This document shows positions 26,797 through 57,949 of a stretch of 64,000 nt of DNA, piece after piece. Source of the DNA: an uncultured Clostridia bacterium (GTDB lineage Bacteria > Bacillota > Clostridia > Christensenellales > UBA1242); contig CALVTJ010000001.1 in the NCBI GenBank assembly GCA_944362545.1, positions 64,500 to 128,499 on the forward strand, written 5' to 3'. Both the position numbers and the translations under genes were made by a program. The notes under the pieces were generated by a model. It saw only the letters and a list, made by a program, of their open reading frames with translations. It made no database searches and had not been told where the DNA came from. Numbering within the stretch: position 1 is the first letter of the stretch; the number at the start of each line of letters is the position of its first letter.

Positions 26797-27045
26797 ATGG
26801 AAAATATCTGCATTGAAGAGCGTAAACAGATCACAATAATCGGCGCGACAAAGGTGCTATCTGCCACCAACACACAATCAGTAGTGGAGGTTGGAGGAAC
26901 AAATCTTGTCATCACTGGAACAAATCTTGAAGTGACAAAACTTGACCTCGACAACAAACAAGTGGTCTTTTCCGGCGAAATAAATGGTGTCAGATATGTC
27001 ACCAAAAAAGAAAAAGTTGGGCTTTTTAAAAGGTTGTTTAAGTAA
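26797..27045 (+). CDS. yabP: Sporulation protein YabP
   Basis: The 82-aa ORF shows the pattern ...ITIIGATKVLSATNTQSVVEVGGTNLVITGTNLEVTKLDLDNKQVVFSGEINGVRY.... The C-terminal GLFKRLFK matches the B. subtilis YabP tail (GFFSKLFK, from memory). An AAGGAG RBS is present. Confidence 0.8.
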   Translation: MENICIEERKQITIIGATKVLSATNTQSVVEVGGTNLVITGTNLEVTKLDLDNKQVVFSGEINGVRYVTKKEKVGLFKRLFK

Positions 27046-27408
27046 ATGCTCTACGAAACACTTTCACAACCACTCATTTTTTTGATTATGACAATAAGCG
27101 GATTTATGTCCGGATTTTTGTTTGATATTAAAGATATTTTTCTGCATTTTATTAAGCAGAAAAATATTATTTCACAAATTTTATTGTTTTTTGCAGTTTT
27201 TTTCACTTTTTTTGAGTATTTTTTAACAAATTTATGGACAAATTTTGGAGAATTGAGATTTTTCACAATCTTTGCATTCTCAATAGCGTTTTTCATTCAA
27301 AGATTTTTAAGCAAGAATTTCCTTGCCAAGCCGTTTTTGATGTGCTACAATAAACTAAAGGAAAAATACCATGGAAGAAAAAAAAGAAAAATGGTGGAAA
27401 AAGTTTAG
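27046..27408 (+). CDS. YabQ-like spore cortex biosynthesis membrane protein (tentative)
   Basis: The polytopic membrane ORF starts immediately after the yabP stop (TAAATG). This position matches the conserved yabP-yabQ gene order. Confidence 0.45.
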   Translation: MLYETLSQPLIFLIMTISGFMSGFLFDIKDIFLHFIKQKNIISQILLFFAVFFTFFEYFLTNLWTNFGELRFFTIFAFSIAFFIQRFLSKNFLAKPFLMCYNKLKEKYHGRKKRKMVEKV

Positions 27409-32388: not shown

Positions 32389-34197
32389 TTAAATTTCTTC
32401 AAATTGGCTGTTGTAAAGGTCGGCATAAAATCCACCTTTTGCCAAAAGTTGTTCGTGATTTCCTTTCTCAATGATGTCGCCATCTTTAAGCACCAAAATC
32501 ATGTCGGCATTTTTGATTGTCGAAAGTCTGTGCGCAATAATGAAAGATGTGCGCCCTTCCATTGCTTTGTCCATTGCCTGTTGAAGCAAAATTTCCGTTC
32601 TGGTGTCGACCGAACTTGTCGCTTCATCCAAAATTATCATAGGTCTGTTTGCGATCATTGTTCTGGCAATGGTGAGAAGTTGTTTCTGTCCTGCTGAAAG
32701 GTTTACCGCATCATCAATCACGGTATCATATCCTTTTGACAATGTTTGAATAAAGTGGTCAACTCCAACATGTTTGCATGCTTCAACAATCTGTTTGTCG
32801 GTGACATTTTTGTTGTTATAACGCAAGTTCTCTTTGATTGTGCCTTCAAAAAGCCACGTGTCCTGAAGCACCATGCCAAAGAGTTCGTGAACATTTTCAC
32901 GAGTTATATCCTGTGTCGAAACACCATCTATCTTGATGTCTCCAGCATTGAGTTCGTAAAATCTCATAAGCAAATTGACTAGAGTGGTCTTTCCGGCACC
33001 TGTCGGTCCAACAATAGCAATCTTCTGCCCTGCCTTGATATTTGCTGAAAAGTCTTTGATGATGATTCTGTTTGGATTGTATCCAAATTTTACATGGTTA
33101 AATTCAACATCGCCCTTGACATTTGTCAAAACTTTGGTCTTGTTGCTCTCATCTGCAAGCTCTTTTTCTTCCAAAAACTCAAACACACGACCACAAGCAG
33201 CGGATGCTGACTGCAAACTTGTCAAACTCTGTGCAATCTGTGAAAGTGGATTTGTAAACAGTCTAACATAAATCATAAACTGCACAATCGTTCCATAATA
33301 AGAAACTCCCCTTTGTGCTGCCAAAACTGCCCCGACAATGCAAACCGCAACATAACCAAAATTGCCGACAAAGTTCATAATTGGCATCATAACACCAGAG
33401 ATAAACTGTGACTTCCAGCCGGTGTTGTAAAGTTTTTTGTTGATTCTCTTAAATTCTTTGCCTGTGCTTTCTTCGGCGTTGAAGAGTTGAACAACATTGT
33501 GACCTGCATAGGTTTCTTCAATGTGTGCGTTTAAATCTCCAAGGTTCTTTTGGTTTTGATTGAAGTATTTTTGTGACTTAATCATGAAAATAAGCGAAAA
33601 ACTGAATCCGATGATTGTTGTGCCAATAACAGTGAGCGCCATTATCCAATCAATAACAAACATCATTATTAAAACTCCAACAAACATGATGGTGTTTGAG
33701 ATAAGCCCTCCAATACTTTGGTTAAGACTCTGACCAATGGTGTCCACATCGTTTGTCACACGGCTCAAGATGTCTCCATGAAGATGTGTGTCAAAATAGT
33801 TGAGTGGAAGTTTGTTGATTTTTCTTGAAATGCCTTGGCGCAATCTCTGCACTGTCTTTTGTGTGACTGTGGCGGTGATATAATGTTGAAAGTATGACAA
33901 AATCGCCCCGGCAACATATATACAAACCAAAAAGATGGCAATTTCTGTGACAGCACCAATATCAATCACTCCTGATCCACCTGGCATAAAGGCACCACTG
34001 ATGATATTTGCGATATCACCAATTTTGTTTGGCCCAATGATTTGAAAAACTACAGCCACCGCCCCAAAAATCATAGAAAGGATTATCCATCCCCAATATC
34101 TTTTGCAGAAAACTAGAAGTTTTCCAAGTGATTTCAAAAATGTTCCCTTTTTAGCCTTCTCCGAAGGTCTGTTTTTCATATTCATCATTCCTGGCAT
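32389..34197 (-). CDS. ABC transporter permease/ATP-binding protein (type I exporter half-transporter)
   Basis: A six-TM domain is followed by Walker A GPTGAGKTT, signature LSAGQKQ and Walker B IILDEATS. The start ATG at 34197 lies 9 nt after GGAGG and abuts the upstream stop. Confidence 0.85.
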   Translation of the reverse strand: MPGMMNMKNRPSEKAKKGTFLKSLGKLLVFCKRYWGWIILSMIFGAVAVVFQIIGPNKIGDIANIISGAFMPGGSGVIDIGAVTEIAIFLVCIYVAGAILSYFQHYITATVTQKTVQRLRQGISRKINKLPLNYFDTHLHGDILSRVTNDVDTIGQSLNQSIGGLISNTIMFVGVLIMMFVIDWIMALTVIGTTIIGFSFSLIFMIKSQKYFNQNQKNLGDLNAHIEETYAGHNVVQLFNAEESTGKEFKRINKKLYNTGWKSQFISGVMMPIMNFVGNFGYVAVCIVGAVLAAQRGVSYYGTIVQFMIYVRLFTNPLSQIAQSLTSLQSASAACGRVFEFLEEKELADESNKTKVLTNVKGDVEFNHVKFGYNPNRIIIKDFSANIKAGQKIAIVGPTGAGKTTLVNLLMRFYELNAGDIKIDGVSTQDITRENVHELFGMVLQDTWLFEGTIKENLRYNNKNVTDKQIVEACKHVGVDHFIQTLSKGYDTVIDDAVNLSAGQKQLLTIARTMIANRPMIILDEATSSVDTRTEILLQQAMDKAMEGRTSFIIAHRLSTIKNADMILVLKDGDIIEKGNHEQLLAKGGFYADLYNSQFEEI

Positions 34198-34198
34198 T

Positions 34199-35932
34199 TT
34201 ACAGTTCCTCCTTTGAAAGTTGTGAAAGAGCAATCTCTTTGTAAACCGGACATTTTTTCAACAACTCTTCATGTGTGCCCATTCCGACCATGTTGCCACT
34301 GTCCAAAACAATGATTTTGTCCGCATCCTTGATTGTTCCAATTCTCTGTGCAACAATAAATTTTGTCACCTTCCCGGTATGTTTTTTCAGTGCTGCACGC
34401 AGTTTGGCATCTGTCTTGTAGTCAAGTGCTGAAAAACTGTCATCAAAAATGAATATCTCTGGTTTTCTTGCCACTGCCCTTGCAATAGACAATCTCTGTT
34501 TCTGTCCACCAGAAACATTTGTTCCTCCCTGCGCGATAGGGCTGTCAATGCCCTTTGGCATCTTGGAAACAAAGTTTGATGCTTGTGCAATGCTTATGGA
34601 GTGTTTGATTGTTTCATCATCGGCGTTGTTGTCGCCAAAATTGATGTTGCTCTTGACCGTTCCACTGAAAAGCACTCCGCGTTGTGGAACATATCCAATC
34701 TTTTTGTAAAGACTGTTCAAGTCATAGTCTCTGACATCCACTCCATCAATCAACACCTTTCCTTCTGTGACATCATAAAGTCTTGGAATAAGATTGATAA
34801 GGGTGCTCTTTCCGCTTCCTGTCGAGCCGATAAAAGCAATAGTTTCGCCTTCTTTTGCTTCAAAACTGATGTCTTTGAGCACATATTCATCGGCATCTGG
34901 ATACTTAAACGAAACATGGTCAAACACCACTGAAGCAGAACGCTTTGAATTTATATCCTCAAACTTGCCAGAAACAATGGAGTCTTTTGTATCCAAAACT
35001 TCATTTATTCTACGAGCAGAAACGAGTGCTCTTGGCATCAAGATAAAGATGATGATAAGAAGCATAAATGCAGCAATCACTTGAATGCCATATTGCATGA
35101 ATGTGGTCATGCTTGCAACTGTTTGTGGGTCTCTAACAATATATGCACCTATCCAATAAATTGCAAGTGACAGTCCGCTCATCAAAAGGTTCATACCTGG
35201 GTTCATAATGCCCATAACTCTGTTGACAAAAAGGTTGGTCTTTGTCAATTTTGTGTTTTTATCTTCAAACTTGGCGTTTTGATAATCTTCTGCGTTTGAA
35301 GCTCTGACAACACGAATACCTGTCAAATTTTCATCAGTCACACGGTTAATATCATCAGTCATGGTCTGAATTTTCTTGAATTTTGGCACGGCGACCAACA
35401 CGATGATTGCAACCATCACAATCAAAAATCCAATTGCAACCGCAAGTGCCACCGACCACTGCCAATCCTTACCCAAAATTTTAATAATGGACCAAACAGC
35501 AAGCACTGGCGCTTTGATGATTGCCTGCATGCCCATGGCAAGAAAGATTTGCACTTGTGTGACATCGTTTGTTGTTCTGGTAATCAAACTTGCGGTGGAA
35601 AATCTGTTTATTTCAGCAAGCGAGAAACCTTGAATTTTGTCATAGACCTTGTTTCTCAAATTGTAGGCAAGTCGCGATGAAATGTTTGCAGTAAAGAACC
35701 CCACCAAAATAGCACTTGCAAGACTTCCAAATGCACATGCAAGCATATAGCCACCGTTGATTAGGATGTTTGTCGTGCTTATCTCTTCCTGCCCGAGTTC
35801 TGTCATCAAATTTTCGGTGTATTCTGGCAATCTCAAATCAAGCCACACCTGCAAAACAATAAACCCACAGACAACAGCAATGAAGAGCCAATCTATCCAC
35901 TTCAAATGTTTAAACAATTTTAAAATGTTCAT
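34199..35932 (-). CDS. ABC transporter permease/ATP-binding protein (partner half-transporter)
   Basis: A TM domain is followed by GSTGSGKST, VSGGQKQR and FIFDDSFS. It is adjacent to a second half-transporter, the usual heterodimeric exporter layout. Confidence 0.85.
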   Translation of the reverse strand: MNILKLFKHLKWIDWLFIAVVCGFIVLQVWLDLRLPEYTENLMTELGQEEISTTNILINGGYMLACAFGSLASAILVGFFTANISSRLAYNLRNKVYDKIQGFSLAEINRFSTASLITRTTNDVTQVQIFLAMGMQAIIKAPVLAVWSIIKILGKDWQWSVALAVAIGFLIVMVAIIVLVAVPKFKKIQTMTDDINRVTDENLTGIRVVRASNAEDYQNAKFEDKNTKLTKTNLFVNRVMGIMNPGMNLLMSGLSLAIYWIGAYIVRDPQTVASMTTFMQYGIQVIAAFMLLIIIFILMPRALVSARRINEVLDTKDSIVSGKFEDINSKRSASVVFDHVSFKYPDADEYVLKDISFEAKEGETIAFIGSTGSGKSTLINLIPRLYDVTEGKVLIDGVDVRDYDLNSLYKKIGYVPQRGVLFSGTVKSNINFGDNNADDETIKHSISIAQASNFVSKMPKGIDSPIAQGGTNVSGGQKQRLSIARAVARKPEIFIFDDSFSALDYKTDAKLRAALKKHTGKVTKFIVAQRIGTIKDADKIIVLDSGNMVGMGTHEELLKKCPVYKEIALSQLSKEEL

Positions 35933-35946
35933 AACTTCCTCTCAAA

Positions 35947-36366
35947 TTAGTTTTCTAAATTTTGTTTAATTTTTCTTACAATCAAAGAAAAGTTTTTCTT
36001 TTCCTCTTCTGTGAGATTTTTTTCGACTTTTTCTTCTGCCTCCATCATCTTTCTCTCAAAGTCTTTGACAAGTCTGTCTGCATTTTTGCTGAGCACTATC
36101 TTTTTCAATCTGCCATCACTCGAGACCGGCACGCGTGAAATGTATCCCTTTTGTGTTAAATTTTGCAAAATCACTGTGGCAGTCGAACGGCGAATATTCA
36201 AAAGTTTTTCGATGTCCTTTTGAAAGATGTCTTCTTCTTTGTGTTCTGTCAAAAATTTCAGAACAAAAAATTGAACTCCAGAAACATTCAAATCTTTGGA
36301 GTCCCGCTCTATTTTTCTGTGTATCGCGTTGTATAACGACTTCATGCTTAAGATGATAGAAAACAT
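35947..36366 (-). CDS. MarR-family transcriptional regulator
   Basis: The 139-aa ORF has a winged-helix pattern ...LKFLTEHKEEDIFQKDIEKLLNIRRSTATVILQNLTQKGYISR.... It is the first gene of the ABC exporter operon. Confidence 0.8.
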   Translation of the reverse strand: MFSIILSMKSLYNAIHRKIERDSKDLNVSGVQFFVLKFLTEHKEEDIFQKDIEKLLNIRRSTATVILQNLTQKGYISRVPVSSDGRLKKIVLSKNADRLVKDFERKMMEAEEKVEKNLTEEEKKNFSLIVRKIKQNLEN

Positions 36367-36445: not shown

Positions 36446-36483
36446 ACAAAAAAAGGAAGAACAAAAATCGAATTGTTCTTCTT
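36446..36483 (-). terminator. Terminator ending the ESCRT-III/Vps4-like operon
   Basis: The 11-bp hairpin has arms at 36454-36464 and 36473-36483 with one mismatch. On the minus strand it is followed by a T7 run, about 30 nt after the stop at 36511. Confidence 0.6.
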
Positions 36484-36510: not shown

Positions 36511-39500
36511 TTATCTCAATTTAGGATAATCCTCTTCCAAAATTTGCCAAATGTTTTCATCAAAGTTCAATCTTGAATCATAAAACTGTCCAAAAGCCAA
36601 GTTGATGCACGAGTCATCACGAGCATAACTTGTTTTTTGAGCGCTTATTTGCAATGTTGAATTTGTAAAGCATCTCTCTGCCCTTCCATCAAGATAGCCA
36701 AACAGACTTCCAACATTGACCGTTTGCTTTTCTTCATCTGTGACAAATGTGATGAGAGAATAACTTGTTGTGACAGTGTCGGTGTAGTTTGTGTTTTGAT
36801 AACTTCCGTAAAGTCCGCCAGCATAAACACTTCCAACAAAACCTGAAAGGTCAACTGTGCCGGTTGTGAGATTGTTTTGACTGCTTGCTCTGCCATATCC
36901 AACAAGTCCGCCGACATAAGCGTTTTCTGCGCTGCCAGAGAGTGTGATGTCGGCATGACTTTCATTTTGTTCAAATGATAAATCATTTCTATCAATGTGC
37001 AAAACTTCGCCGACAAGTCCGCCGATATTCATGTTTTGTGCATTGTTTGCATTTATCGCAAGATTGCCCGTGGCATTGTTATTTTCAACAATCACTCTGT
37101 CATTTCCACCACTTACTCTGCCGGCAATTTCGCCTACGGATAAATTTCCGTTTTCAATGGTGATTGTGATGTTAAGTCCAACAAGACAATTTTCAATATC
37201 GCCGTTTTGAACAGCCCCGGCAATTCCGCCAACCACTGCCGTTGTCTGAAAGTTTAATGTGATGTTGCCACTAACCGTGCAATTTTCAATAAGTCCATGA
37301 TTGGAAATAGCAAAAGAGCCAAAGTTTGTCGCATTTTGATAGGTCATATCCGCCAAGACAAGATTGAGATTTTTTATCTGTCCATTGTTGCGGTCAAAAA
37401 GTCCCAAATTTTTGCCATCTCTGAATGTGACCTTTTCAATGGTGTGTCCATCGCCATCAAGCACTCCACTAAATGCCCCACCGCTCCATGTTGCACCATC
37501 CAAATCTATGTTTTCTGTCAACTTGAAGTTTGCCGAAGGTGCATTTGCAAGAAGCACTTTCAACTCGTGTACATTGGAGATTTCCATTGTGGTTGGGAAA
37601 AGATAAAGTCCGCATATTGTCAAAATTAAATTGAGTCCCGCAAAGCAAAAAAGTGCACAATTTGCCACATTCCAACCTTTTGAAACGCGGTATCTTGTCT
37701 TGATAAAAACCACCAAATTAACCATGCCCACAAGTGTAGACAAAATCACCAAAACAATCAAAAATGTTTGATTGAAATACAAAAACACTTCTTTTGGCAA
37801 AGCAATAGTAATCACCAACAAAAGCGTTGTGAAAAGGATTGGAAAAAGTTCCAAGAAGCCATATAAAAACTTCTTCAAAAACTTGTCGTTCTTGATATCC
37901 TTAATGCGTTTTTTGTGTCGTGCTTCGCTCTGCTTTTCTGTTTCATAGACATTTTTTAGACCCTCATCTCTACCAAGCAAGTCCACCACATTGATAGATG
38001 TCTCAAGAGTCAAATTCAGGGCATCAAGACGGGTGTTTATCTTGGAGATAATATCACTATAAGCTGAAAATTCTTTGACATCTTTTATCTCTTCCGCGTA
38101 TTTTTCAAAAGGTTGAAGTTGAAGTTTGTAATAATTCACTCCACGCAAAACCTTGTCTCCTTCCTGCTTTTGCATATCCAACAAAACGGTGTTGTTTCGT
38201 GCGACAAAGTCCTGAAGTTTTTCTATCAAATGCACCTTGTCAAGCAAGTCAGCTTTTATTTTCACTTTTTCGCCAGAATACAAACTTATCTTGCTGGCGA
38301 TTTCGGCATATTTTTCGGTCTGTTTTTCATCCGCAACCGAAAGCATTGTCTCCCATTCAGGCATCTGTGTCACTTTGATGCCTGACATGATAAGTTCGTT
38401 GTCATTTTTGCAATGTGCTTTGATTTTTACCAGCATCCAATAAAATTCGGCGTTGTTTTTGTCTTTGGAGATGGCAATGGCAAGATATTTTTCTGCCTGC
38501 TTAAAAAAACCCGAATTTTGAAAATATTCAGCAATTTTGACAAGCAATTTGCACAAACTTTCATCATCGTTGACATATGAAAGATAAAAATCAATCTGTT
38601 TCTCTGCCTTTTCAATATCAAAAAAGGCAATCGGCAAAATCATGTCCACGACCGCTGATACAAATTGCGTGCGCGTGGCAGGAGACAAAAACTTGAAGAC
38701 ATCTTCCACCGTTTCTCTGTCACGAAAATTCAATTTGTCCTCATCGGTTTTGAAATGTTGAAGAAGAAGAGTGATGTTGCTTTGTTCATGTCCGGCATCG
38801 AGTTCCAAAATTTTTTGATAATATTTTTTGTCATCACTCTTTTGTGCCAGCATGAAATAAAATTGCACAAACCTGTCCACTTCATCATTCTTGAAACATT
38901 TGATAACCTTTTCAATAAGTTCTTCATTCAAAGTCTCAACCGCTCTTTGTTCGGCATGATTGATAAAGTTTTCGCGATTTGGCGAGTTGAAGCTTGCAAG
39001 ATAAAGCAAAAAAGCGTTGTAATATTCTTCACTGTCAAGTTTGATAATCAAATTTTCCCAACTGTCGACAAATGATTCGGCAAATTCTTTTGAAGCATAC
39101 TTCAAAATTTTGTCAATTTTTTCTTTGTCGCGAAAGTTTCCAATGCTAGAGAAAAATTCTTCCTGCGATCTTATATTATTTTCAATCAAAAGGTCGGCAA
39201 AGAGAAGTTCAGCATTATTTTCATCCTTTTCAAGACCTTGGTCAACAAGTTCCTTGGCTGAAGCAAAATCACCATTTTTGATGGTTAAAAAAAGCCATTT
39301 TATTTTGTTCTCATCCGAAAGTGGAACATTTTCCACTTGATAATGTCCCAGGTCTGTCGGTGTGACAGTTTGAACATCAACATATTCTTTCTTTTGTGGC
39401 TTGATGGTGTCAAGGTTCACCGTGTCAATTTTGGCAAGTTCAATGTCCGCATTGTCCACTTCCTTTTTGACCTTAACTTGAATGTCTTGCAAGAAAGAAA

Positions 39501-40326
39501 TTGCATTCATGTCAACAACACTCTTGCAAGGCAACAATTCCTTCGGAAAATCTTCTTCTTTGATTTTTTGCCTGTCGCAAGCAATTACAAAACTGCTTTT
39601 TGTCTTTTTCTTCTGTGATACAAAAAACAGATAACGGTCAAAAAGATTTTTTATCTCGCCATAGCCAAATCCTTCTTTTTCGTTGGCAAACAAAACAAAA
39701 GCCTTTGCTGTCTGCAAAGCACGAAAGGTCTCTTCTTCTCTCTCTTTGTGTGCAAGGTCTTGCACAAAGTAAACTTCAAGTCCCTGATGTCTCAGACTTT
39801 CCACCGCTTTGGAAATCAAAGTGTCCTTTTCTTTGTTAAATGAGAGAGCAACCGCAACAACATCAAAGTGAAGTTTGCTCGCCTGCTCTGTGTAGAGATT
39901 TTTGATTTTTTCAATGCGTTTTGCTTGGTCATTGTAAGTTTTTGCCACTTCCGGTGGAGCATTTTTTACGGCATTTAAAAAATCTTCATCCTGCAAAATT
40001 GAAGGGATTTCGTCACCAAAAAACCTTGGTCTTTTCCCACCACCCTTGTGATTGGTGTAAAAAATTATCCTGTTTTTTGCAAGGCATTTTCCATAAAAAC
40101 CTTCAAACGATTTTGGATAAATGGTCAAAATCTTGTCAAACTCTTCTTTTGCACCATCAAAATCGCAATCACGCAATTTTTCATATGCACCAACGATCAA
40201 AAATTCTTCTTCTTTAGAGGCGCGTTCATCGACATACAAAGTGCCACAAAACATGCATTTGACCATGTTTTGCCCAACTACTTTATATAATCTTCCTCCA
40301 CAATTTTTGCATACACGCTCTCTCAA
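36511..40326 (-). CDS. 1271-aa multidomain membrane protein: N-terminal zinc ribbon, helical/TPR-like repeats, 3 TM helices, extracellular GLUG-repeat domain
   Basis: CKNCGGRL...CMFCGTLY forms a zinc ribbon, followed by long helical repeat regions. Three hydrophobic helices lie at about aa 838-925 (ELFPILFTTLLLVITIAL, FLIVLVILSTLVGMVNLVVFI, ALFCFAGLNLILTICGLYLF). The C-terminal region has NIGGLVGEV, YVGGLVGYG and YAGGLYGSY (GLUG). The start is a TTG 7 nt after GGAG. Confidence 0.8.
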   Translation of the reverse strand: MRERVCKNCGGRLYKVVGQNMVKCMFCGTLYVDERASKEEEFLIVGAYEKLRDCDFDGAKEEFDKILTIYPKSFEGFYGKCLAKNRIIFYTNHKGGGKRPRFFGDEIPSILQDEDFLNAVKNAPPEVAKTYNDQAKRIEKIKNLYTEQASKLHFDVVAVALSFNKEKDTLISKAVESLRHQGLEVYFVQDLAHKEREEETFRALQTAKAFVLFANEKEGFGYGEIKNLFDRYLFFVSQKKKTKSSFVIACDRQKIKEEDFPKELLPCKSVVDMNAISFLQDIQVKVKKEVDNADIELAKIDTVNLDTIKPQKKEYVDVQTVTPTDLGHYQVENVPLSDENKIKWLFLTIKNGDFASAKELVDQGLEKDENNAELLFADLLIENNIRSQEEFFSSIGNFRDKEKIDKILKYASKEFAESFVDSWENLIIKLDSEEYYNAFLLYLASFNSPNRENFINHAEQRAVETLNEELIEKVIKCFKNDEVDRFVQFYFMLAQKSDDKKYYQKILELDAGHEQSNITLLLQHFKTDEDKLNFRDRETVEDVFKFLSPATRTQFVSAVVDMILPIAFFDIEKAEKQIDFYLSYVNDDESLCKLLVKIAEYFQNSGFFKQAEKYLAIAISKDKNNAEFYWMLVKIKAHCKNDNELIMSGIKVTQMPEWETMLSVADEKQTEKYAEIASKISLYSGEKVKIKADLLDKVHLIEKLQDFVARNNTVLLDMQKQEGDKVLRGVNYYKLQLQPFEKYAEEIKDVKEFSAYSDIISKINTRLDALNLTLETSINVVDLLGRDEGLKNVYETEKQSEARHKKRIKDIKNDKFLKKFLYGFLELFPILFTTLLLVITIALPKEVFLYFNQTFLIVLVILSTLVGMVNLVVFIKTRYRVSKGWNVANCALFCFAGLNLILTICGLYLFPTTMEISNVHELKVLLANAPSANFKLTENIDLDGATWSGGAFSGVLDGDGHTIEKVTFRDGKNLGLFDRNNGQIKNLNLVLADMTYQNATNFGSFAISNHGLIENCTVSGNITLNFQTTAVVGGIAGAVQNGDIENCLVGLNITITIENGNLSVGEIAGRVSGGNDRVIVENNNATGNLAINANNAQNMNIGGLVGEVLHIDRNDLSFEQNESHADITLSGSAENAYVGGLVGYGRASSQNNLTTGTVDLSGFVGSVYAGGLYGSYQNTNYTDTVTTSYSLITFVTDEEKQTVNVGSLFGYLDGRAERCFTNSTLQISAQKTSYARDDSCINLAFGQFYDSRLNFDENIWQILEEDYPKLR

Positions 40327-40338
40327 ACTTTTTCTCCG

Positions 40339-41490
40339 TTAATTCTTTGTCGTTTTTGTTGATTTCTTGTCTCTGATAAGACTTCCCATTTCTTTGTTGT
40401 ATTCTTCAAATTGTTTTAGTTCTTTTTCAGTCACACTTGGTGGCATCTTTGACAAAACACCATCAAAATCTTTGTTGGTCACCAAAATTATGCTGTCGGT
40501 GGCAATCGCTTTCAAAAGAGGTTCATCCTTTGCTCTATCACAAAGTTCATCAATGTCTGCACCGCTATACATCTCGGTCTGTGCAACAATTCTATCCACA
40601 TCAAAATCTTCTGCCACCGGCACGCCCTTCATGTTTTTTTCAATCATAAACTTTCTTGCCGGAGCATCCGGAAGTGGTATGTAAATTTTCTGCGAAAATC
40701 TGCCCGAACGCAATGCCGCGCTGTCAATGTCCCATGGCCTGTTTGTTGCACCAAGCAAAAGCAGGTTTGGATTTCTCCCCGCAAATCCATCAATCTGTTG
40801 CAAAAACTCGTTGACACGCTTGTCATTGTGTGTGTCTACTCCGCGTTTGCCAATCAAACTGTCCATCTCATCAATAAAGATGATGGACCTGTCCTGTTTG
40901 TTTGCTTCTTGAAAGAGAGAATTGATGTTTTTCTCACTGTCTCCGACCCACTTGCTGACAATGTCAGAACCCTTGACAGCATAAAACTTTGCGCCAACTT
41001 CGTTGGCAATCGCCTTGGCAATCATGGTCTTTCCCGTGCCCGGCGGACCATATAAAAGCACTCCACCACCTGTTTTTTTGCCGTAGAGTTTGTATTTGTC
41101 TGGATATTTGATTGGATTTATCATCCTAATTGTTATTGCCTTTTTAACATCATCAAGCCCAGCAACATCGGCAAACTTGACATTTGGAATTTGTGCCGTT
41201 TGCCACTTTTTGATGTCTTCATCTTCTTCAGTGTTTTCATCATCTTTTTTGTTTATTTTTTCCGGTTTTTTATGCAAATTTTCGGCAATGTCTACAAGTC
41301 GACGCGCTCTGTCCATGCGCACTTCTTTCAACTTGCCCGCACTCTGTTTTGCCATTTGCATCATCGTTTCACTTGCCAGCAAAAAGTTTCGCTTTGCAAG
41401 TGTAAGATTGCCTCTGTCCTTTGCTTCTTTTCCTTTTTTCATGTAAAGATTGAAGGTGTCAGAAAGCACATTCATGTTTGTTTCTTTCAC
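40339..41490 (-). CDS. Vps4/CdvC-like AAA ATPase with N-terminal MIT-like domain
   Basis: The N-terminal ~75 aa are helical: YMKKGKEAKDRGNLTLAKRNFLLASETMMQMAKQ...RMDRARRLVDIAENL, which is MIT-like. The AAA elements are Walker A GPPGTGKT, SKWVGDSEK, Walker B IIFIDEMDS, and second region of homology LLLGATNRPWDIDSAALRSGRFSQKIYIPLPD. The C-terminal VTNKDFDGVLSKMPPSVTEKELKQFEEYNKEMG resembles the Vps4 C-terminus. There is no TM segment and no protease domain. Confidence 0.8.
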   Translation of the reverse strand: MKETNMNVLSDTFNLYMKKGKEAKDRGNLTLAKRNFLLASETMMQMAKQSAGKLKEVRMDRARRLVDIAENLHKKPEKINKKDDENTEEDEDIKKWQTAQIPNVKFADVAGLDDVKKAITIRMINPIKYPDKYKLYGKKTGGGVLLYGPPGTGKTMIAKAIANEVGAKFYAVKGSDIVSKWVGDSEKNINSLFQEANKQDRSIIFIDEMDSLIGKRGVDTHNDKRVNEFLQQIDGFAGRNPNLLLLGATNRPWDIDSAALRSGRFSQKIYIPLPDAPARKFMIEKNMKGVPVAEDFDVDRIVAQTEMYSGADIDELCDRAKDEPLLKAIATDSIILVTNKDFDGVLSKMPPSVTEKELKQFEEYNKEMGSLIRDKKSTKTTKN

Positions 41491-41519
41491 AACAAAAACC
41501 TCTAATTAAAATTTTTAAC

Positions 41520-42128
41520 CTATTCATCCTTGTTTGATGTTTCAGCATCAATCTTTTTGCGCACCTCTTCCATTTCTTTGTCGATGTTTTCGCTTGAGAG
41601 TTCATCCTGTGAAGCCTGTTCCATGATAAACTTTTCAAGTTCTTCATCTGACATCTGCTTTCCACTCTTGTCGACACCTTGATTGTAAAAGGTCTCCTGA
41701 CTCATCTCCATAAAGTTGTCCATTTGGTCGGTTTGAATTTCCACCGCTGCCATAGCCTCTTCAAATTGCGCCTGAATCTTTGCAAATTCTTTCGCATCAG
41801 CAAGTTTTGTCATCTCTTTGCTGATTTCACTCATTCCACGCAAAAATTCGGATGTCATCATGGTCACATCCTTCATCTGTGCGGTAATTTCAAAGTTCAA
41901 AAGCATCTCTTGTGCGCGCTTTTGTTGTTGGAGTGTCATTTTGTAGCCACTGAGTGCCAACTTAAACTGTGCGTCAAGCCCTTTAAGTTTTGCTCTCTTT
42001 GCCGCATCAATAAACACCTGCTTTTGGTCTTCAAGTCTGTTGATTTGCTTGTTCATTGAATTGATTGTGCGCTTGATAAGCATCTTCTTTTCAATTTCTT
42101 TTTGTTGTTTTGATTTAAAAAGTCCCAT
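41520..42128 (-). CDS. ESCRT-III (Snf7/CHMP)-like protein, CHMP2/3-like paralog
   Basis: The 202-aa all-helical ORF starts MGLFKSKQQKE..., like CHMP3 MGLFGK (from memory). It has a basic N-terminal half and an acidic C-terminal half. ...DAAKRAKLKG...FEITAQMKDVTMMTSEFLRGMSEISKEMTKLADAKEFAKIQAQFEEAMAAVEIQTDQMDNFME... aligns by eye with CHMP2/3 core helices. The tail SENIDKEMEEVRK is MIM1-like. A GGAGG RBS is present. Confidence 0.65.
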   Translation of the reverse strand: MGLFKSKQQKEIEKKMLIKRTINSMNKQINRLEDQKQVFIDAAKRAKLKGLDAQFKLALSGYKMTLQQQKRAQEMLLNFEITAQMKDVTMMTSEFLRGMSEISKEMTKLADAKEFAKIQAQFEEAMAAVEIQTDQMDNFMEMSQETFYNQGVDKSGKQMSDEELEKFIMEQASQDELSSENIDKEMEEVRKKIDAETSNKDE

Positions 42129-42131
42129 TTT

Positions 42132-42746
42132 TTATTCCTCCATTTTTGCTTTTTTCTTTTTTTGTGGTTCTTCTTTTTCTATTTCTTGTGAGAGTTCTTG
42201 TTCTTCATCAAGTTGATTTTCTTTTTCAAACATACTCAAAATTTCTTCTTCACTCTTTCCAACTCCATAGATTGGTTGATTTGTCTCATATGCCGATTGC
42301 ACTTCGTTGAAAAGTTCATCCGCACTTGTCAAAACATCTTCGCTGGAGATTCTCGTTTCAAGTGCTTTGTTTAAAAATTTGGCAAGTTGTTTCTGGTCAT
42401 GCAAAAGTTCGCTGAGAGGAACTTTGGTCTGCGTCTTGAAAAAAGTGTTGCTGTCATAGGCATCTTTGAGTTTGTTCATCAACCTTATGTTGTACAGCAA
42501 ATACATCCCCCTTTCCATGCAAGTTTGCTTTTCTTCGTTTAAGTGAGCAATCTTTTTGGCAATGAAAAGTTGCAAATCGCGGTTCTTTTCATGCTTCCCC
42601 TTTTCCACTAAAGCATCAATCTCTTTGATTTTTTGATAAACTTCCGCCTCCGCTGTGCGTTCTTGGCGTTCAAGTTCCAAAATTGAATTGACAAGGTCCT
42701 CGCGCTTTATGTTCTTAAATTTGTTTCGTCTAAATGGCCACCACAT
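42132..42746 (-). CDS. ESCRT-III (Snf7/CHMP4)-like protein, second paralog
   Basis: The 204-aa helical ORF has the N-terminus MWWPFRRNKF (compare yeast Snf7 MWSSLFGW, from memory). ...LELERQERTAEAEVYQKIKEIDALVEKGKHEKNRDLQLFIAKKIAHLNEEKQ... follows the Snf7 helix-1/2 pattern, and the tail is acidic. An AAGGAG RBS is present. Confidence 0.55.
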   Translation of the reverse strand: MWWPFRRNKFKNIKREDLVNSILELERQERTAEAEVYQKIKEIDALVEKGKHEKNRDLQLFIAKKIAHLNEEKQTCMERGMYLLYNIRLMNKLKDAYDSNTFFKTQTKVPLSELLHDQKQLAKFLNKALETRISSEDVLTSADELFNEVQSAYETNQPIYGVGKSEEEILSMFEKENQLDEEQELSQEIEKEEPQKKKKAKMEE

Positions 42747-42760
42747 TTGCCTTTCTCCTT

Positions 42761-43120
42761 TTAATAATTATCGCCTATATTTATCGTTCGAATCCTTTCA
42801 AGCAGTCCTTCGTATATCTTCTTTTGATTTTCATCCGCAACTTCCAACGCTTTTTCACATTCCGGCAAGTAAATCGCCATTTTGTAAGTCATTGGATTGG
42901 AGTAGAGTTCATCCTCATTTCTGAGTTGAAATTTGACAAGCATAAGTCCCCACCAAGCATCCGCACATTTGTCATCATATTGCAATGCAAGGTCAAAATT
43001 GATTTTTGCCTGTTCAAACATTCCATCGGCAAGGTTTAAATAACCAAGTTTAAGTTCGTTCAACACTTTGATTTTTTCACTTTCCGGCAAGTTTGAAGAT
43101 GTTTGATAAGTCCTTTTCAT
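42761..43120 (-). CDS. Small TPR-repeat protein
   Basis: The 119-aa ORF has a TPR-like segment, GMFEQAKINFDLALQYDDKCADAWWGLMLVKFQ. Its start overlaps the upstream stop (ATGA). Confidence 0.55.
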   Translation of the reverse strand: MKRTYQTSSNLPESEKIKVLNELKLGYLNLADGMFEQAKINFDLALQYDDKCADAWWGLMLVKFQLRNEDELYSNPMTYKMAIYLPECEKALEVADENQKKIYEGLLERIRTINIGDNY

Positions 43121-43521
43121 TCAGCCTGTTCTTCCTTTTTTCTTTGCACTATATATGCTTCAATCTCTTCAAGCACACGAAAACAAGTCTCTTGCGTGTT
43201 GTCTTTTGCCACCATGATTTTCAGGTCATCAAGTTTGTTTGCAATTTTGTTGTCAATCAAAAGCACCTTTGAATTTGTGGTTGGATTGAAAAAACGAATA
43301 TTGTCTTTCACTTCAACAAGCCTGTTGCAAAGAGTGTCATTTCCGTTTGCATAAACCAAAATGCTCTCCACATTTGCCACCATGTTTTCGATATTCTTTT
43401 TGTTTCTAACAATCCCCCGACTGCCTTCTTCTTTTTCATTTTTCTTGCCATATTCTCGCCAAATATAGAAAATTGCCAAGCCGACCACCGCCAACAGAAT
43501 GATTATATAAAACGCTATCAT
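43117..43521 (-). CDS. Single-pass membrane protein with cytoplasmic helical domain
   Basis: The 134-aa ORF has an N-terminal TM helix, IAFYIIILLAVVGLAIFYIW. It is joined to both neighbours by ATGA overlaps. Confidence 0.5.
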   Translation of the reverse strand: MIAFYIIILLAVVGLAIFYIWREYGKKNEKEEGSRGIVRNKKNIENMVANVESILVYANGNDTLCNRLVEVKDNIRFFNPTTNSKVLLIDNKIANKLDDLKIMVAKDNTQETCFRVLEEIEAYIVQRKKEEQAE

Positions 43522-44360
43522 ACATCCTCCTTTGAAAGTTTTTCACCACAAGATGAACAAAACTTGGCATCATCTGGATTTTCCGCAAAACACTTTGGAC
43601 ATTTTTTGCCGATTTCCACACGATTTCCACAAACCGAACAGAATTTGTCGTTCTCTTTCAAAACCGCTCCACATTTTCGGCAGACAAAGTTGTCTGTCTT
43701 TTTGATTTGTTTGTAAGCCCTGTCAAGTTTGTCACAGTCCTCTTTTTCAATGATAATGTTTGCAATATTGAAAGAAAAAACCGTGATGCCATACTCGCTC
43801 AAAAGGTTTTGCCCAAGAATGCGCAAAACCTTGTTTGCAATTTCTTTTTTGCAGAGAGTCAGTTGGTTGAAAAGCACCTTGTTTTGTTCGACATAGTTTG
43901 TCACAACATCTTCCAAAATCGACACAACATTTGACATAAGTCGCTCTTGCAAGACATCACTTGTCAGATCGTTTGCCACACCAACAAGATAGAGATAACA
44001 CTTTCTCGGGTCTCCAATCTGCACTTCAAAATCTCCACTCATGCCCACATGATAATTTTCTTGCAAAAGGCCATCGAACATCAAAAACTTGTTTGCCGTG
44101 CCCCACAAAAGTTTGAGTTTCGCGGTTTTCGACATGAACAGAATTTCGATTTTGCAGTCGCTTTCGGTTTTGATATCAACAAACTGTGTGATGAGATATT
44201 TTCCAGATGAGAGTGTTTGAAGCATCTGCCCATCCTTAACCAAAATGGCATTATGTGTTTCTGGCACAATAAGTGTCACCTTTGGGTTTAGATTGTTTAC
44301 AACAATTCTCGAAAACAACTGCTGATTGTTTCCTGTGAAGGTAATAAGATTTTGTTCCAT
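43518..44360 (-). CDS. YdjI/COG4260-like SPFH-type protein with two C-terminal zinc ribbons
   Basis: The N-terminal region (...LIVPETHNAILVKDGQMLQTLSSGKYLI...) resembles the 'virion core protein-like'/SPFH family that includes B. subtilis YdjI. The C-terminus has CRKCGAVL..CSVCGN and CPKCFAEN..CSSCGE. The ATG at 44360 lies 8 nt after AAGGA. Confidence 0.6.
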   Translation of the reverse strand: MEQNLITFTGNNQQLFSRIVVNNLNPKVTLIVPETHNAILVKDGQMLQTLSSGKYLITQFVDIKTESDCKIEILFMSKTAKLKLLWGTANKFLMFDGLLQENYHVGMSGDFEVQIGDPRKCYLYLVGVANDLTSDVLQERLMSNVVSILEDVVTNYVEQNKVLFNQLTLCKKEIANKVLRILGQNLLSEYGITVFSFNIANIIIEKEDCDKLDRAYKQIKKTDNFVCRKCGAVLKENDKFCSVCGNRVEIGKKCPKCFAENPDDAKFCSSCGEKLSKEDV

Positions 44361-44377
44361 CAAAAAATCCTTTTTGC

Positions 44378-44432
44378 AAGAAGATATACTTCTTCACTTA
44401 AAATTATAGCAAAAAGATTTTTCAAAAGTCAA
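44378..44432 (-). promoter_or_regulatory. Candidate promoter of the 7-gene operon (TTGACT-18-TGcTATAAT) with a 5'-UTR inverted repeat
   Basis: On the reverse strand, TTGACT is at 44432-44427, the spacer is 18 nt with a TG extension, and TATAAT is at 44408-44403. A perfect inverted repeat AAGAAG-ATATA-CTTCTT at 44378-44394 lies between the predicted TSS and the RBS. Confidence 0.45.
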
Positions 44433-48483: not shown

Positions 48484-48559
48484 GGGGGTATGGCTCAGTT
48501 GGTAGAGCACCTGCCTTGCAAGCAGGGGGTCATCGGTTCGAATCCGATTATCTCCACCA
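48484..48559 (+). tRNA. tRNA-Ala (anticodon UGC), CCA encoded
   Basis: The sequence is GGGGGTATGGCTCAGTTGGTAGAGCACCTGCCTTGCAAGCAGGGGGTCATCGGTTCGAATCCGATTATCTCCACCA. It folds as a cloverleaf by hand, with the G3:U70 Ala identity pair, the anticodon loop CUUGCAA, and the T-loop GGTTCGAATCC. Confidence 0.93.
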
Positions 48560-51089: not shown

Positions 51090-51192
51090 AACACCATAAA
51101 GAGTGTGCGAGGGACAGCCCCTTTGACCACACAGCAACCTGCCTTGTGCAAGGTGCTAAAGGCTGACCGATGGAAACTTTGTTGTGACAGAA
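51090..51192 (+). promoter_or_regulatory. SAM-I (S-box) riboswitch
   Basis: AUAAAGAG-UGUGC-GAGGGAC-AGCCCC-UUUGA-CCACACA-GCAACC-...-GGUGCUAAAGGC...-ACUUUGU contains the conserved GAGGGA, GCAACC and GGUGCUAA blocks. P1 is AUAAAG/CUUUGU. The element lies upstream of metK and is followed by a terminator. Confidence 0.8.
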
Positions 51193-51224: not shown

Positions 51225-51247
51225 CTTTGTGGCAAAAGGAGAACAAA

Positions 51248-52336
51248 ATGAGAAAAATTATTACAAGCGAAAGCGTAAACATAGGGCATCCTGACAAAAC
51301 CTGCGACACCATTGCGGATGCCTTTTTGGATGAAGCATTAAAACAGGACAGAAACGCACAAATGGCGGTGGAGTGTGCTATCAAAAACAATAAATTGTTC
51401 ATCTATGGCGAAGCGACAACCTCTGCACAAATTGATTATCAAGACATCGCTTCGCGAGTGCTCAAAGATGTAGGCTATGACATGCCTTTTGAATTTGTGG
51501 TGGAAGTTTCAAAGCAGAGTCCTGACATCAACCAAGCGGTCACAAAAAAACATCTTTGCGCAAATGACCAAGGCATTGTGTTTGGCTACGCCACAAACGA
51601 GACAAAAGAGTGCATGCCCCTGCCAATCATGGTGGCACACAAACTTATGAGAAGATTTGAAGAATATCGCAAAACCACAAACGAATTTTTTGCCGATGCC
51701 AAATCACAGGTTTCGGTGGTTTATGAAAATGACAAACCAATGTGTTTCGACACCATTCTTGTCAGTGTCAGTCACAGTCCGGATTGTCACAACATTCAAG
51801 AGAAAATCATGCAAAACGTCATTCTTCCCATTTTGAAAGAATATTCAAACTTGACAAATAATAATACAAAATTTATCATCAACCCTAGCGGAAAATTCAC
51901 CATTTGGGGAAGTTTTGGCGACAGCGGATGTGTCGGCAGGAAGATTGTTGTGGACACATATGGCGGTGTGGCTCATGTTGGTGGTGGATGTTTTTCTAGC
52001 AAAAATGCCACTAAAGTTGACCGCTCAGGCGCATATTATGCAAGATATGTCGCCAAAAGCCTTGTAAAAAACAGTCTCTGTGACAGGTGCGAAGTTGCTC
52101 TTTCCTTTGGCATTGGGCTTGAAAGACCACTATCAATAAACATTGACACCTTTGGCACAGAAAAAATTCCACTTGAAAAAATCTATCAAATTGTCAATAA
52201 AAATTTTGATTTTTCACTTTCAAACATCATTGCCGAACTTGACCTTTTGAAACCTATCTACAAACAAACTGCTTGTTATGGACATTTTGGCAATAAAAAT
52301 TACAGTTGGGAAAAGATAAAAAAACTTGCACGCTAA
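51248..52336 (+). CDS. metK: S-adenosylmethionine synthetase (divergent, 362 aa)
   Basis: MRKIITSESVNIGHPDKTCDTIADAFLDEAL, SKQSPDINQAV, DQGIVFGYATNET, GRKIVVDTYGG, KVDRSGAYYARYVAK and ACYGHFG are present. The RBS is AAAGGAG. It is shorter than typical bacterial MetK and several motifs are altered (CANDQG instead of GAGDQG). Confidence 0.88.
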   Translation: MRKIITSESVNIGHPDKTCDTIADAFLDEALKQDRNAQMAVECAIKNNKLFIYGEATTSAQIDYQDIASRVLKDVGYDMPFEFVVEVSKQSPDINQAVTKKHLCANDQGIVFGYATNETKECMPLPIMVAHKLMRRFEEYRKTTNEFFADAKSQVSVVYENDKPMCFDTILVSVSHSPDCHNIQEKIMQNVILPILKEYSNLTNNNTKFIINPSGKFTIWGSFGDSGCVGRKIVVDTYGGVAHVGGGCFSSKNATKVDRSGAYYARYVAKSLVKNSLCDRCEVALSFGIGLERPLSINIDTFGTEKIPLEKIYQIVNKNFDFSLSNIIAELDLLKPIYKQTACYGHFGNKNYSWEKIKKLAR

Positions 52337-57874: not shown

Positions 57875-57949
57875 TGGTGCACCCAGAAGGACTCGAACCC
57901 TCCATAATGGTTCCGAAGACCATTGTGATATCCACTTCACTATGGGTGC
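57875..57949 (-). tRNA. tRNA-Arg (anticodon UCG), CCA encoded
   Basis: The reverse complement is GCACCCATAGTGAAGTGGATATCACAATGGTCTTCGGAACCATTATGGAGGGTTCGAGTCCTTCTGGGTGCACCA. It has a 7-bp acceptor stem, a D arm, the anticodon stem ATGGT/ACCAT with loop CUUCGGA, and the T-loop TTCGAGT. Confidence 0.9.

Follow-up and report, generated by a model that had tools for sequence, protein, structure and literature searches.

A seven-gene operon of gut Clostridia that encodes a Snf7-family ESCRT-III protein together with a MIT-AAA ATPase of Vps4-like architecture

A seven-gene operon in an uncultured Clostridia bacterium

We analysed 64,000 nucleotides (nt) of DNA, hereafter the window, from an uncultured Clostridia bacterium of the UBA1242 lineage (assembly GCA_944362545.1, contig CALVTJ010000001.1), in which seven minus-strand open reading frames (ORFs) form an operon at 36,511-44,432. 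These ORFs (genes 1-7) encode proteins of 281, 134, 119, 204, 202, 383 and 1271 amino acids (aa), respectively (Table 1). [quoted passage not shown] On balance, we favour the interpretation that the operon encodes a bacterial membrane-remodelling machine of the ESCRT-III/Vps4 type, driven by ATP. The pairing of ESCRT-III with Vps4 is absent from bacteria according to recent reviews; a Vps4-like ATPase 'appears absent in bacteria', and the bacterial ESCRT-III relatives PspA and Vipp1 are held to be regulated otherwise for that reason (PMC7619361). No earlier description of the seven-gene operon was found in the searchable literature.

Successive genes of the operon are separated by -4, -4, +14, +3, +29 and +12 nt. 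The top-scoring promoter match within the region, a match to consensus only, is a TTGACT-18-TATAAT site 5' of gene 1; a strict pattern found a comparable site in 26 of 74 related loci. Similarly, a hairpin with a T-run follows gene 7 in 36 of 54 related loci, as it does here. The two 4-nt overlaps, the single promoter and the single terminator link the genes tightly. An earlier note on this DNA had described precisely this layout (seven genes with gaps of -4 to +29 nt and two overlaps, between a promoter and a terminator), and the ORF and boundary checks bore out all of it. The G+C content of the operon is 0.37-0.40, like that of its surroundings. Dozens of related genomes have all seven ORFs in conserved order, which shows them to be real genes and not ORFs that arose by chance.

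Gene 5 is a Snf7-family ESCRT-III protein

The N-terminus of the gene 5 protein, MGLFKSK, is conserved; after it come a core formed by a helical hairpin, a linker of acidic residues and, at the C-terminus, an amphipathic helix. The net charge of the protein is +9 in the N-terminal half and -15 in the C-terminal half, and the corresponding values for gene 4 are +4 and -10; the basic N-half and acidic tail ascribed earlier to both proteins are therefore real. Close homologues of gene 5 (>82% identity) are numerous in metagenome-assembled genomes (MAGs) of Clostridia, and when 1.84 billion cluster representatives were searched exhaustively with a profile, a family of 358 clusters at 50% identity (E<=1e-3), mostly of 190-220 aa, was retrieved.

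Single-sequence searches of the PDB with genes 4 and 5 returned nothing useful, and family profiles and structural models alone were informative. For gene 5, 85 diverse family members were sampled, which share 23-54% identity with the protein of the window. Sixteen of the 85 individually matched Pfam Snf7 (PF03357), the best at 1.4e-9, and PspA_IM30 (PF04012) was absent among the families listed for these relatives (25 of 28 shown). When the 85-member profile was compared with the PDB, human CHMP2A was matched at E=2.8e-6, collinearly over profile positions 6-150 (145 positions), and weaker matches were obtained to CHMP1B, CHMP3, Vps24 and CdvB.

The AlphaFold2 (AF2) model of gene 5 (predicted local distance difference test score, pLDDT, of 86) contains helices at residues 7-48, 52-107, 112-146 and 161-200, and so has the long alpha1-alpha2 hairpin, shorter helices and acidic tail of the ESCRT-III fold. 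This model was compared by Foldseek with 350,542 PDB chains. Eleven of the 13 best matches were ESCRT-III proteins, CHMP1B, CdvB, CdvB2, Asgard ESCRT-IIIB and CHMP2A being among them; ranks 8 and 10 were taken by Vipp1 and PspA, which belong to the same superfamily. PspA and Vipp1 are thus neighbours of gene 5 in structure only, and neither gene 4 nor gene 5 of the window matched the PspA/Vipp1 profile (PF04012, E<=1). Family-level sequence matches and the fold both place gene 5 in the Snf7 family of ESCRT-III, apart from PspA. Its earlier description as Snf7/CHMP-like is thus upheld by the CHMP2A match, by Pfam Snf7 in relatives and by ESCRT-III structures coming first in Foldseek.

The MIM1 motif, known from Vps2 and CHMP1-type subunits, has the consensus (D/E)xxLxxRLxxL(K/R). 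The C-terminal helix of gene 5 appears to resemble it, judging from the family alignment, in which the consensus is D-x-x-[IL]-x-x-(K/R)-[LI]-x-x-[LI]-(K/R). Positions 182, 186, 189 and 193 are hydrophobic in 82-94% of the 85 sequences (<=54% identity to the window protein), and the helix is flanked by acidic residues on its N-terminal side and by basic residues on its C-terminal side. The window protein has Glu at the Arg/Lys position of the MIM1 consensus; the helix otherwise fits the MIM1 spacing.

Gene 4 probably encodes a divergent ESCRT-III-like protein

Gene 4 always adjoins gene 5 in the related loci. An aromatic-basic N-terminus, MW(W)PF+xK(F/Y), is common to its orthologues, as is the motif 'IYGV..DDELLAMFE', which precedes a variable acidic tail. 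Searched alone, gene 4 had no Pfam or NCBIfam match to Snf7 or PspA (E<=1), and its profile found no ESCRT-III match in the PDB. Compared directly with gene 5, it gave E=0.1 by BLASTP, and the two families aligned collinearly over positions 1-178 by hhalign (E=2.4e-4, probability 43%; E=0.0018 with a smaller alignment). The AF2 model of gene 4 (pLDDT 70) placed CdvB2 (probability 0.99, template modelling score, TM-score, of 0.49-0.53), CdvB and CHMP3 (TM-score by target 0.55-0.62) first in Foldseek. Gene 4 is thus probably, though not demonstrably, a divergent ESCRT-III-like paralogue, as its model and the profile comparison suggest. Its earlier listing as a second Snf7/CHMP-like protein holds as far as a moderate-confidence model and a marginal profile match carry it, but finds no echo in Snf7, PspA or PDB sequence matches, which numbered zero.

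Gene 6 combines a MIT-like domain, a single AAA domain and Vps4_C

Gene 6 carries a Walker A motif (GPPGTGKT), a Walker B motif (IIFIDEMD), pore loop 1 (KWVG) and an arginine-finger region (RSGRF). These are essentially invariant across 11 diverse orthologues, the pore-loop Trp being replaced by Tyr in one. With its catalytic and pore motifs all conserved, gene 6 looks like an active Vps4-type enzyme, as far as its motifs can tell. The AAA domain matched PF00004 at 5e-43. Vps4_C (PF09336) was matched at 25.6-29.1 bits (gathering cut-off 21.3) over the C-terminal helix part only, and the NCBIfam CdvC model (NF041006) spans the protein end to end, aligning residues 10-366 to 8-366 of 370 at 210 bits.

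As a single sequence, the isolated N-domain of gene 6 matched neither Pfam MIT nor NCBIfam CdvC. A profile of this domain from diverse orthologues was also compared with the PDB, where 7 of the 14 matches are MIT domains aligned over the same ~57-residue span. These matches include 2w2u, which we take to be the MIT domain of Sulfolobus CdvC, at E=0.011, and the MIT domains of VPS4A/B at 0.07-0.9, those of VPS4A being at 0.07-0.1. The strongest of the MIT matches was 2mpk (E=2e-4), the MIT domain of a Saprolegnia chitin synthase, whose identity as a MIT domain is confirmed in PMC8851075. Support for a MIT domain in gene 6 is therefore moderate, and it is joined to a single AAA domain and Vps4_C.

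Gene 6 lies directly 3' of gene 5 here and in most related loci; TPR genes intervene in Coproplasma-type loci. Makarova et al. 2024 (PMC10936438) recognise a Vps4 operationally by a MIT domain or by ESCRT genes as neighbours, and gene 6 has both.

Related loci keep the Snf7-like, MIT-AAA and SPFH genes together

Relatives were scanned in one genome per species with a 20-sequence gene 5 alignment. A gene 5 relative is encoded in 161 species-representative genomes, and loci were taken from the best 80 of these, all of which are Clostridia MAGs (Caccovivens, Coproplasma, Christensenella/Christensenellaceae, Catabacter and the like) from the gut of human, rabbit, chicken, deer and buffalo. Loci with a gene 5 identity of 72% or more have the complete set of seven genes in unchanged order. 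Where gene 5 is 56-66% identical, a core of gene1-gene2-gene4-gene5-gene6 is found in nearly all loci that are long enough, and TPR proteins related to gene 7 are either missing or encoded between genes 5 and 6. The search for the block in relatives that had been proposed with the earlier claims thus gave a positive answer, with the seven-gene order in the close group and the five-gene core in the distant group.

The same types of gene recur in other subfamilies. In locus L086 a Snf7-like gene is followed by an AAA gene with Vps4_C, and in L087 by an AAA gene; L088 contains three Snf7-like genes (one of them fused to FtsK), a Band_7_1 gene, a MIT-AAA gene and a gene for a 1257-aa protein. Compared with the MIT-like profile, the ATPases of L086 and L088 give N-domain matches at ~1e-17 to 1e-18. 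This repeated linkage of Snf7-like, MIT-AAA and SPFH genes in separate subfamilies is the strongest argument for a joint function. The earlier note had named three outcomes that would speak against its claims: helical proteins that are unrelated coiled coils, an ATPase whose N-domain is not MIT-like and whose AAA domain clusters with FtsH/SpoVK, and a block without conservation. None of the three was found in full.

In most close relatives the DNA downstream of the operon matches that of the window, and since so many of them have this flank in common the locus appears to be a stable chromosomal one. A mobile island was considered and rejected on the basis of this shared flank and of a composition like that of the surroundings.

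Individual loci vary in several respects. The ATPases of six divergent loci (L060, L062, L064, L067, L071 and L082) are extended at the C-terminus by ~110 conserved aa to which no domain is assigned, and that of another (L075:2364-4553) has 729 aa, with two AAA domains in tandem. Three loci of close relatives (L005, L006 and L007) have a gene for a 298-aa protein of the Ppx/GppA family (ASKHA fold) between gene 5 and the ATPase gene; in L006 (L006:9629-10525) it matches PF02541 at 50 bits against a cut-off of 27. A gap of ~500 nt separates gene 5 from the ATPase gene in L032 and L037.

Snf7-like domains also occur in fusions. Five other proteins of the gene 5 family (P0302, at L088:8001-9863, P0298, P0299, P0306 and P0313) have a Snf7-like N-domain of ~185 aa fused to a FtsK/SpoIIIE motor, in place of the usual membrane anchor, and some also have FtsK_alpha. 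Four others (P0294, P0304, P0311 and P0367) have a Snf7-like N-domain fused to a RuvB-like AAA+ (RuvB_N and RuvB_C), and two of these four carry in addition a C-terminal NERD nuclease domain.

Accessory genes of the operon

Gene 1 has the architecture of a YdjI-type partner, that is, a SPFH domain with C-terminal zinc ribbons, encoded with an ESCRT-III-superfamily gene. It matched PF13421 (Band_7_1) at 1.1e-12 and DZR at 1.4e-14, contains four CxxC motifs, lacks a transmembrane segment and is kept at the 5' end of the block in related loci. Gene 2 had no family match in Pfam or NCBIfam; an orthologue occupies the same position in 76 loci. Gene 3 had no Pfam match, is found in Caccovivens-type loci and was undetected in more divergent loci.

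Gene 7 has CxxC motifs at residues 6 and 24. In sub-sequence scans it reached 24.0 bits for TPR_14 (cut-off 23.5) and 21.1 for Glug (cut-off 20.5), and its GLUG domain is presumably extracellular. The C-terminal part is variable, the proteins of L001 and L020 being 906-908 aa long. At residues ~153-285 (39472-39870), after the zinc ribbon and ahead of the TPR region, gene 7 may contain a TIR-like alpha/beta domain; TIR_2 was matched in 3 of 10 orthologues, below threshold (E=0.004-0.06).

The descriptions that these genes had been given in the earlier note were mostly confirmed. The Pfam matches and the four CxxC motifs agree with a YdjI-like SPFH protein with zinc ribbons for gene 1, hydropathy gives the one N-terminal transmembrane segment of gene 2, and the CxxC motifs and transmembrane segments of gene 7, with TPR_14 and Glug just above their cut-offs, fit a zinc-ribbon/TPR protein with three transmembrane segments and GLUG. 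For gene 3, named as a TPR protein, the sole basis is the NCBIfam PilW match; Pfam TPR was not matched.

Table 1 Features of the seven-gene operon and their positions in the window
Feature	Position	Strand	Description	Basis
Promoter-like site	44403..44432	-	sigma-70 type, TTGACT-18-(TG)TATAAT, upstream of gene 1	11/12 matches
Gene 1	43518..44363	-	YdjI-like SPFH protein, 281 aa: Band_7_1 (26-215) and double zinc ribbon (228-276)	Pfam
Gene 2	43117..43521	-	small protein, 134 aa: one N-terminal transmembrane helix (1-25), cytoplasmic helical tail	hydropathy 2.88
Gene 3	42761..43120	-	soluble protein, 119 aa, weakly TPR-like	NCBIfam PilW TPR model, E=0.002
Gene 4	42132..42746	-	probable divergent ESCRT-III-like subunit, 204 aa	AF2/Foldseek and weak profile match
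Gene 5	41520..42128	-	Snf7-family ESCRT-III protein, 202 aa	family profile, Pfam Snf7 in relatives, AF2 model and Foldseek
MIM1-like C-terminal helix of gene 5	41550..41594	-	residues 179-193	family alignment
Gene 6	40339..41490	-	MIT-like domain, acidic linker, single AAA domain and Vps4_C, 383 aa	Pfam, NCBIfam, motifs
MIT-like N-domain of gene 6	41266..41472	-	three helices, residues ~7-75	N-domain profile against PDB
Vps4_C-type helix of gene 6	40384..40482	-	residues 337-369	PF09336, profile positions 29-61 of 61 matched
Gene 7	36511..40326	-	1271 aa: zinc ribbon (6-27), TPR-rich helical region, three transmembrane segments (820-912), C-terminal side with GLUG repeats (913-1271)	motifs, Pfam sub-scans
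Terminator-like hairpin	36456..36481	-	9-bp hairpin and T7	30 nt past gene 7 stop codon

Surroundings of the operon

Homologues of yabP and yabQ, which the earlier note had reported from this genome, were found at 26797-27387 on the plus strand and are 66% and 49% identical to Pfam-annotated genes of locus L001. The host thus has some sporulation-associated genes at the least; the pair of L001 lies ~4 kb from the operon, on the opposite side.

Directly past the operon terminator, on the minus strand, the stretch 32389-36366 holds an ORF of 139 aa and ORFs of 577 and 614 aa, and inspection by eye shows an ABC-type ATP-binding signature in the 577-aa ORF. A single ORF of 3733 aa (13885-25086, minus strand) lies ~11 kb downstream of the operon. 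Elsewhere in the window we found a SAM (S-adenosylmethionine) riboswitch at 51091-51185 on the plus strand (51.6 bits), upstream of an ORF at 51227-52336, and tRNA genes at 48484-48556 (plus strand) and 57878-57949 (minus strand).

Relation to known systems

The operon unites the archaeal ESCRT-III and Vps4 core, the bacterial pair of a MIT-AAA ATPase with a TPR-transmembrane protein, and the SPFH-zinc-ribbon partner of PspA from Firmicutes. Of these, the archaeal Cdv system (CdvB and CdvC), including the Methanobacteriales 'Meth_adaptin' type (Makarova et al. 2024, PMC10936438), likewise has one or more Snf7 genes beside a MIT-AAA-Vps4_C gene. The tail of archaeal ESCRT-III carries a MIT-interaction-like motif, to which the MIM1-like helix of gene 5 would correspond. 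In contrast to Cdv, the host here belongs to the Clostridia, and CdvA, winged-helix (ESCRT-II-like) and adaptin-appendage proteins were not detected; the AAA core of gene 6 scores slightly closer to Cdc48 than to CdvC, and the operon has accessories of its own, namely the single-transmembrane protein, the TPR protein and the zinc-ribbon/TPR protein with three transmembrane segments and GLUG.

The second parallel is the PspA-YdjG-YdjH-YdjI system of Bacillus subtilis, in which a Firmicute also encodes a SPFH-zinc-ribbon protein, ESCRT-III-superfamily genes and a small membrane protein in one operon. The band-7/zinc-ribbon protein encoded with pspA in B. subtilis has the same architecture as gene 1 (PMC11237479), and PspA reportedly depends on YdjI for its localisation at the membrane, as cited in PMC10936438. 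However, the presumed polymer-forming proteins of the present operon are of the Snf7 type, not PspA_IM30; a TPM-domain YdjH and a NTF2-like YdjG are missing, and there is a MIT-AAA ATPase, which the B. subtilis system lacks.

The third is the bacterial 'MIT+Vps4-AAA -> TPR+TM' pair (Ravi et al. 2024, PMC11237479; for example Opitutus ACB74714.1; TM, transmembrane), which has the same gene order as genes 6 and 7. According to the same study, Vps4-like ATPases were transferred to several bacterial phyla, Firmicutes not included, with snf7 displaced by a protein with TPRs and six transmembrane segments, and candidate phyla have a divergent membrane-anchored Snf7 with a two-domain AAA protein (PMC11237479). 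In our operon, one or two Snf7-like genes and a SPFH gene are kept and gene 7 has three transmembrane segments rather than six, together with GLUG; the likeness is one of architecture.

The presence of two differing subunits also recalls the eukaryotic and Asgard systems, in which a B-type (Snf7/Vps20-like) and an A-type (Vps2/24-like) ESCRT-III subunit work with Vps4. Gene 5, whose best match is the A-type CHMP2A, bears a putative MIM1-like tail, as the subunit that recruits the ATPase would. Gene 4 is too divergent to place as A or B type, and the operon has no ESCRT-I, ESCRT-II or ubiquitin components.

A proposed mechanism

Drawing on the archaeal and eukaryotic ESCRT-III/Vps4 systems and on the YdjI-PspA pair of B. 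subtilis, we infer every step of the following mechanism by analogy, from recruitment by the SPFH protein, polymerisation, MIT-MIM contact and subunit extraction to the role in the cell. Genes 1 and 2, as a SPFH-zinc-ribbon protein and a single-pass protein, would form a membrane scaffold on the cytoplasmic face, which may recruit the ESCRT-III-like subunits as YdjI does PspA in B. subtilis. Genes 4 and 5 would then co-polymerise on the membrane through their helical-hairpin cores and their basic/aromatic N-termini. Gene 6 may dock by its MIT-like domain on the C-terminal, MIM1-like helix of gene 5 and could thread subunits through its KWVG pore loop, the outcome being an ATP-driven turnover or constriction of the polymer. 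Genes 3 and 7, through their TPRs, may serve as adaptors that tie the machine to a site in the envelope via the GLUG domain.

By the same analogy, such a machine would probably maintain or repair the membrane, or cut membrane necks during division, in sporulation or for the release of vesicles. The promoter, being of the vegetative type, speaks for a constitutive function, for example maintenance or repair of the membrane. That the operon acts in sporulation or in envelope repair, as suggested before, is conjecture.

Alternative explanations

The FtsK fusion of a related lineage, taken together with yabP and yabQ in the host, keeps septal or forespore fission in play, for which the same parts would form a dedicated machine, a bacterial counterpart of Cdv/ESCRT abscission. 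In L088 the Snf7-like domain that replaces the FtsK/SpoIIIE membrane anchor stands beside Snf7-like, Band_7_1 and MIT-AAA genes, as would suit such a machine. However, that fusion belongs to a different lineage; the promoter is vegetative, sigma-70-like and not of a sporulation-sigma type (by pattern match), and the operon does not lie beside division or sporulation genes, yabP and yabQ being 9 kb away with unrelated genes between. We consider a machine restricted to septal or forespore fission rather unlikely.

The other explanations draw on results that weigh against an ESCRT-III/Vps4-type machine as such. For the ATPase, the AAA part alone scored best for CDC48 (222 bits), followed by CdvC (203), FtsH (196) and PAN (190). 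Its lid region matched p97 D2 best, then katanin and fidgetin-like proteins, and Vps4 fell outside the top 60, in PDB rankings for gene 6 in which over 60 p97/Cdc48 entries, each scoring through two domains at once, crowd the list and preclude a direct comparison with Vps4. At 210 bits the whole protein is well under the CdvC equivalog cut-off of 650, the support for its MIT domain peaks at E=2e-4, and the top match of a wider N-domain profile is another protein, 2jpu. Judged by scores only, gene 6 neither reaches CdvC nor groups with Vps4. Since its AAA core and lid are nearer Cdc48/p97-D2 than CdvC, 'Vps4-like' denotes an architecture here and not a demonstrated orthology; the earlier claim of a Vps4-like MIT-AAA ATPase stands for the MIT-like N-domain and Vps4_C, but not for the AAA core.

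Gene 6 could accordingly be a Cdc48-like unfoldase for the quality control of membrane proteins (with gene 7 or SPFH clients, for example), genes 4 and 5 being its adaptors or regulators. SPFH proteins commonly partner AAA proteases, as in HflK/C-FtsH, and the TPR proteins of the operon could be substrate adaptors. Yet gene 6 has a single AAA domain and is without the Cdc48 N-domain, a Pfam scan found no protease in the operon, and a MIT-like domain, Vps4_C and a MIM1-like partner tail together are the signature of an ATPase that services ESCRT-III. An unfoldase of this kind is, in our view, improbable.

An anti-phage or conflict system, which would kill or seal infected cells through membrane action, could be read from the match of gene 6 to PADLOC IetA models (1e-38), from the weak TIR-like region and variable C-terminus of gene 7, and from the gene 5 relatives that are fused to a RuvB-like AAA with a NERD nuclease. 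The IetA score (132 bits) is, however, under those for generic CDC48 and FtsH, the NCBIfam IteA model gives 110 (cut-off 510), and PADLOC matched none of the six other proteins; beyond a generic AAA domain the operon thus did not match IetAS or another PADLOC anti-phage system. The downstream flank shared by most close relatives, the G+C content and the spread over 161 species representatives also speak against such a system, and no relatives were found in viral contigs. With a generic AAA match in PADLOC and no viral relatives, defence was rejected as the main explanation and strikes us as very improbable.

For genes 4 and 5, the adverse results are as follows. The gene 5 protein of the window has no Pfam or NCBIfam match of its own, Snf7 and PspA included (E<=1), its Foldseek matches are weak (probability up to 0.98, E 0.04-0.5, TM-score 0.27-0.47), and designed helical repeat proteins are also present among the PDB matches of its profile. 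None of 37 members of the gene 4 family matched Pfam Snf7 or PspA. In Foldseek, designed helical bundles and a BAR domain were interleaved with the ESCRT-III matches of gene 4, all at E>=0.13, and the profile match between genes 4 and 5 is marginal, barely above a shuffle null (23.0 over 164 columns, against a best of 21.6 over <=119 columns in 60 block shuffles). As expected for flexible helical proteins, the weak E-values and low TM-scores of both are not decisive. That the likeness to ESCRT-III is a coiled-coil artefact, with genes 4 and 5 unrelated helical proteins and gene 6 a generic AAA chaperone, might be argued from the lack of direct Snf7 matches in the window, Foldseek values of E>=0.04 and the designed repeats, but this is disfavoured for gene 5 and scarcely credible overall, given CHMP2A at E=2.8e-6 over 145 collinear positions with several independent ESCRT-III entries behind it, 16 family members that reach Pfam Snf7 (down to 1.4e-9), and 11 of the first 13 places taken by members of the ESCRT-III superfamily when 350,542 chains were compared by structure.

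Implications

An ATP-driven membrane-remodelling machine of the ESCRT-III/Vps4 type remains the interpretation that we prefer for the operon. A further-reaching version of it, in which ESCRT-III in the strict sense and a Vps4-type ATPase would form a working reverse-topology scission machine across an order-level group of gut Clostridia, is possible and somewhat doubtful. We hold it just as tentatively that such scission would be the last severing step of division, of forespore engulfment or of the release of vesicles. If this were true, the ESCRT-III/Vps4 pairing would not be limited to archaea and eukaryotes, and it could either have reached bacteria by an old transfer or predate the split between archaea and bacteria. 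The relatives with a Snf7-FtsK fusion would then link DNA clearance to membrane abscission.

The operon and its 358-cluster family show Snf7-type proteins kept beside MIT-AAA and YdjI-type SPFH proteins in many gut Clostridia. If the operon works as proposed, it would offer a compact bacterial model for ATP-driven remodelling by ESCRT-III and would bear on the time at which the ESCRT-III/Vps4 partnership arose. It would also make testable whether ESCRT-III-like polymers finish membrane fission in some bacteria.

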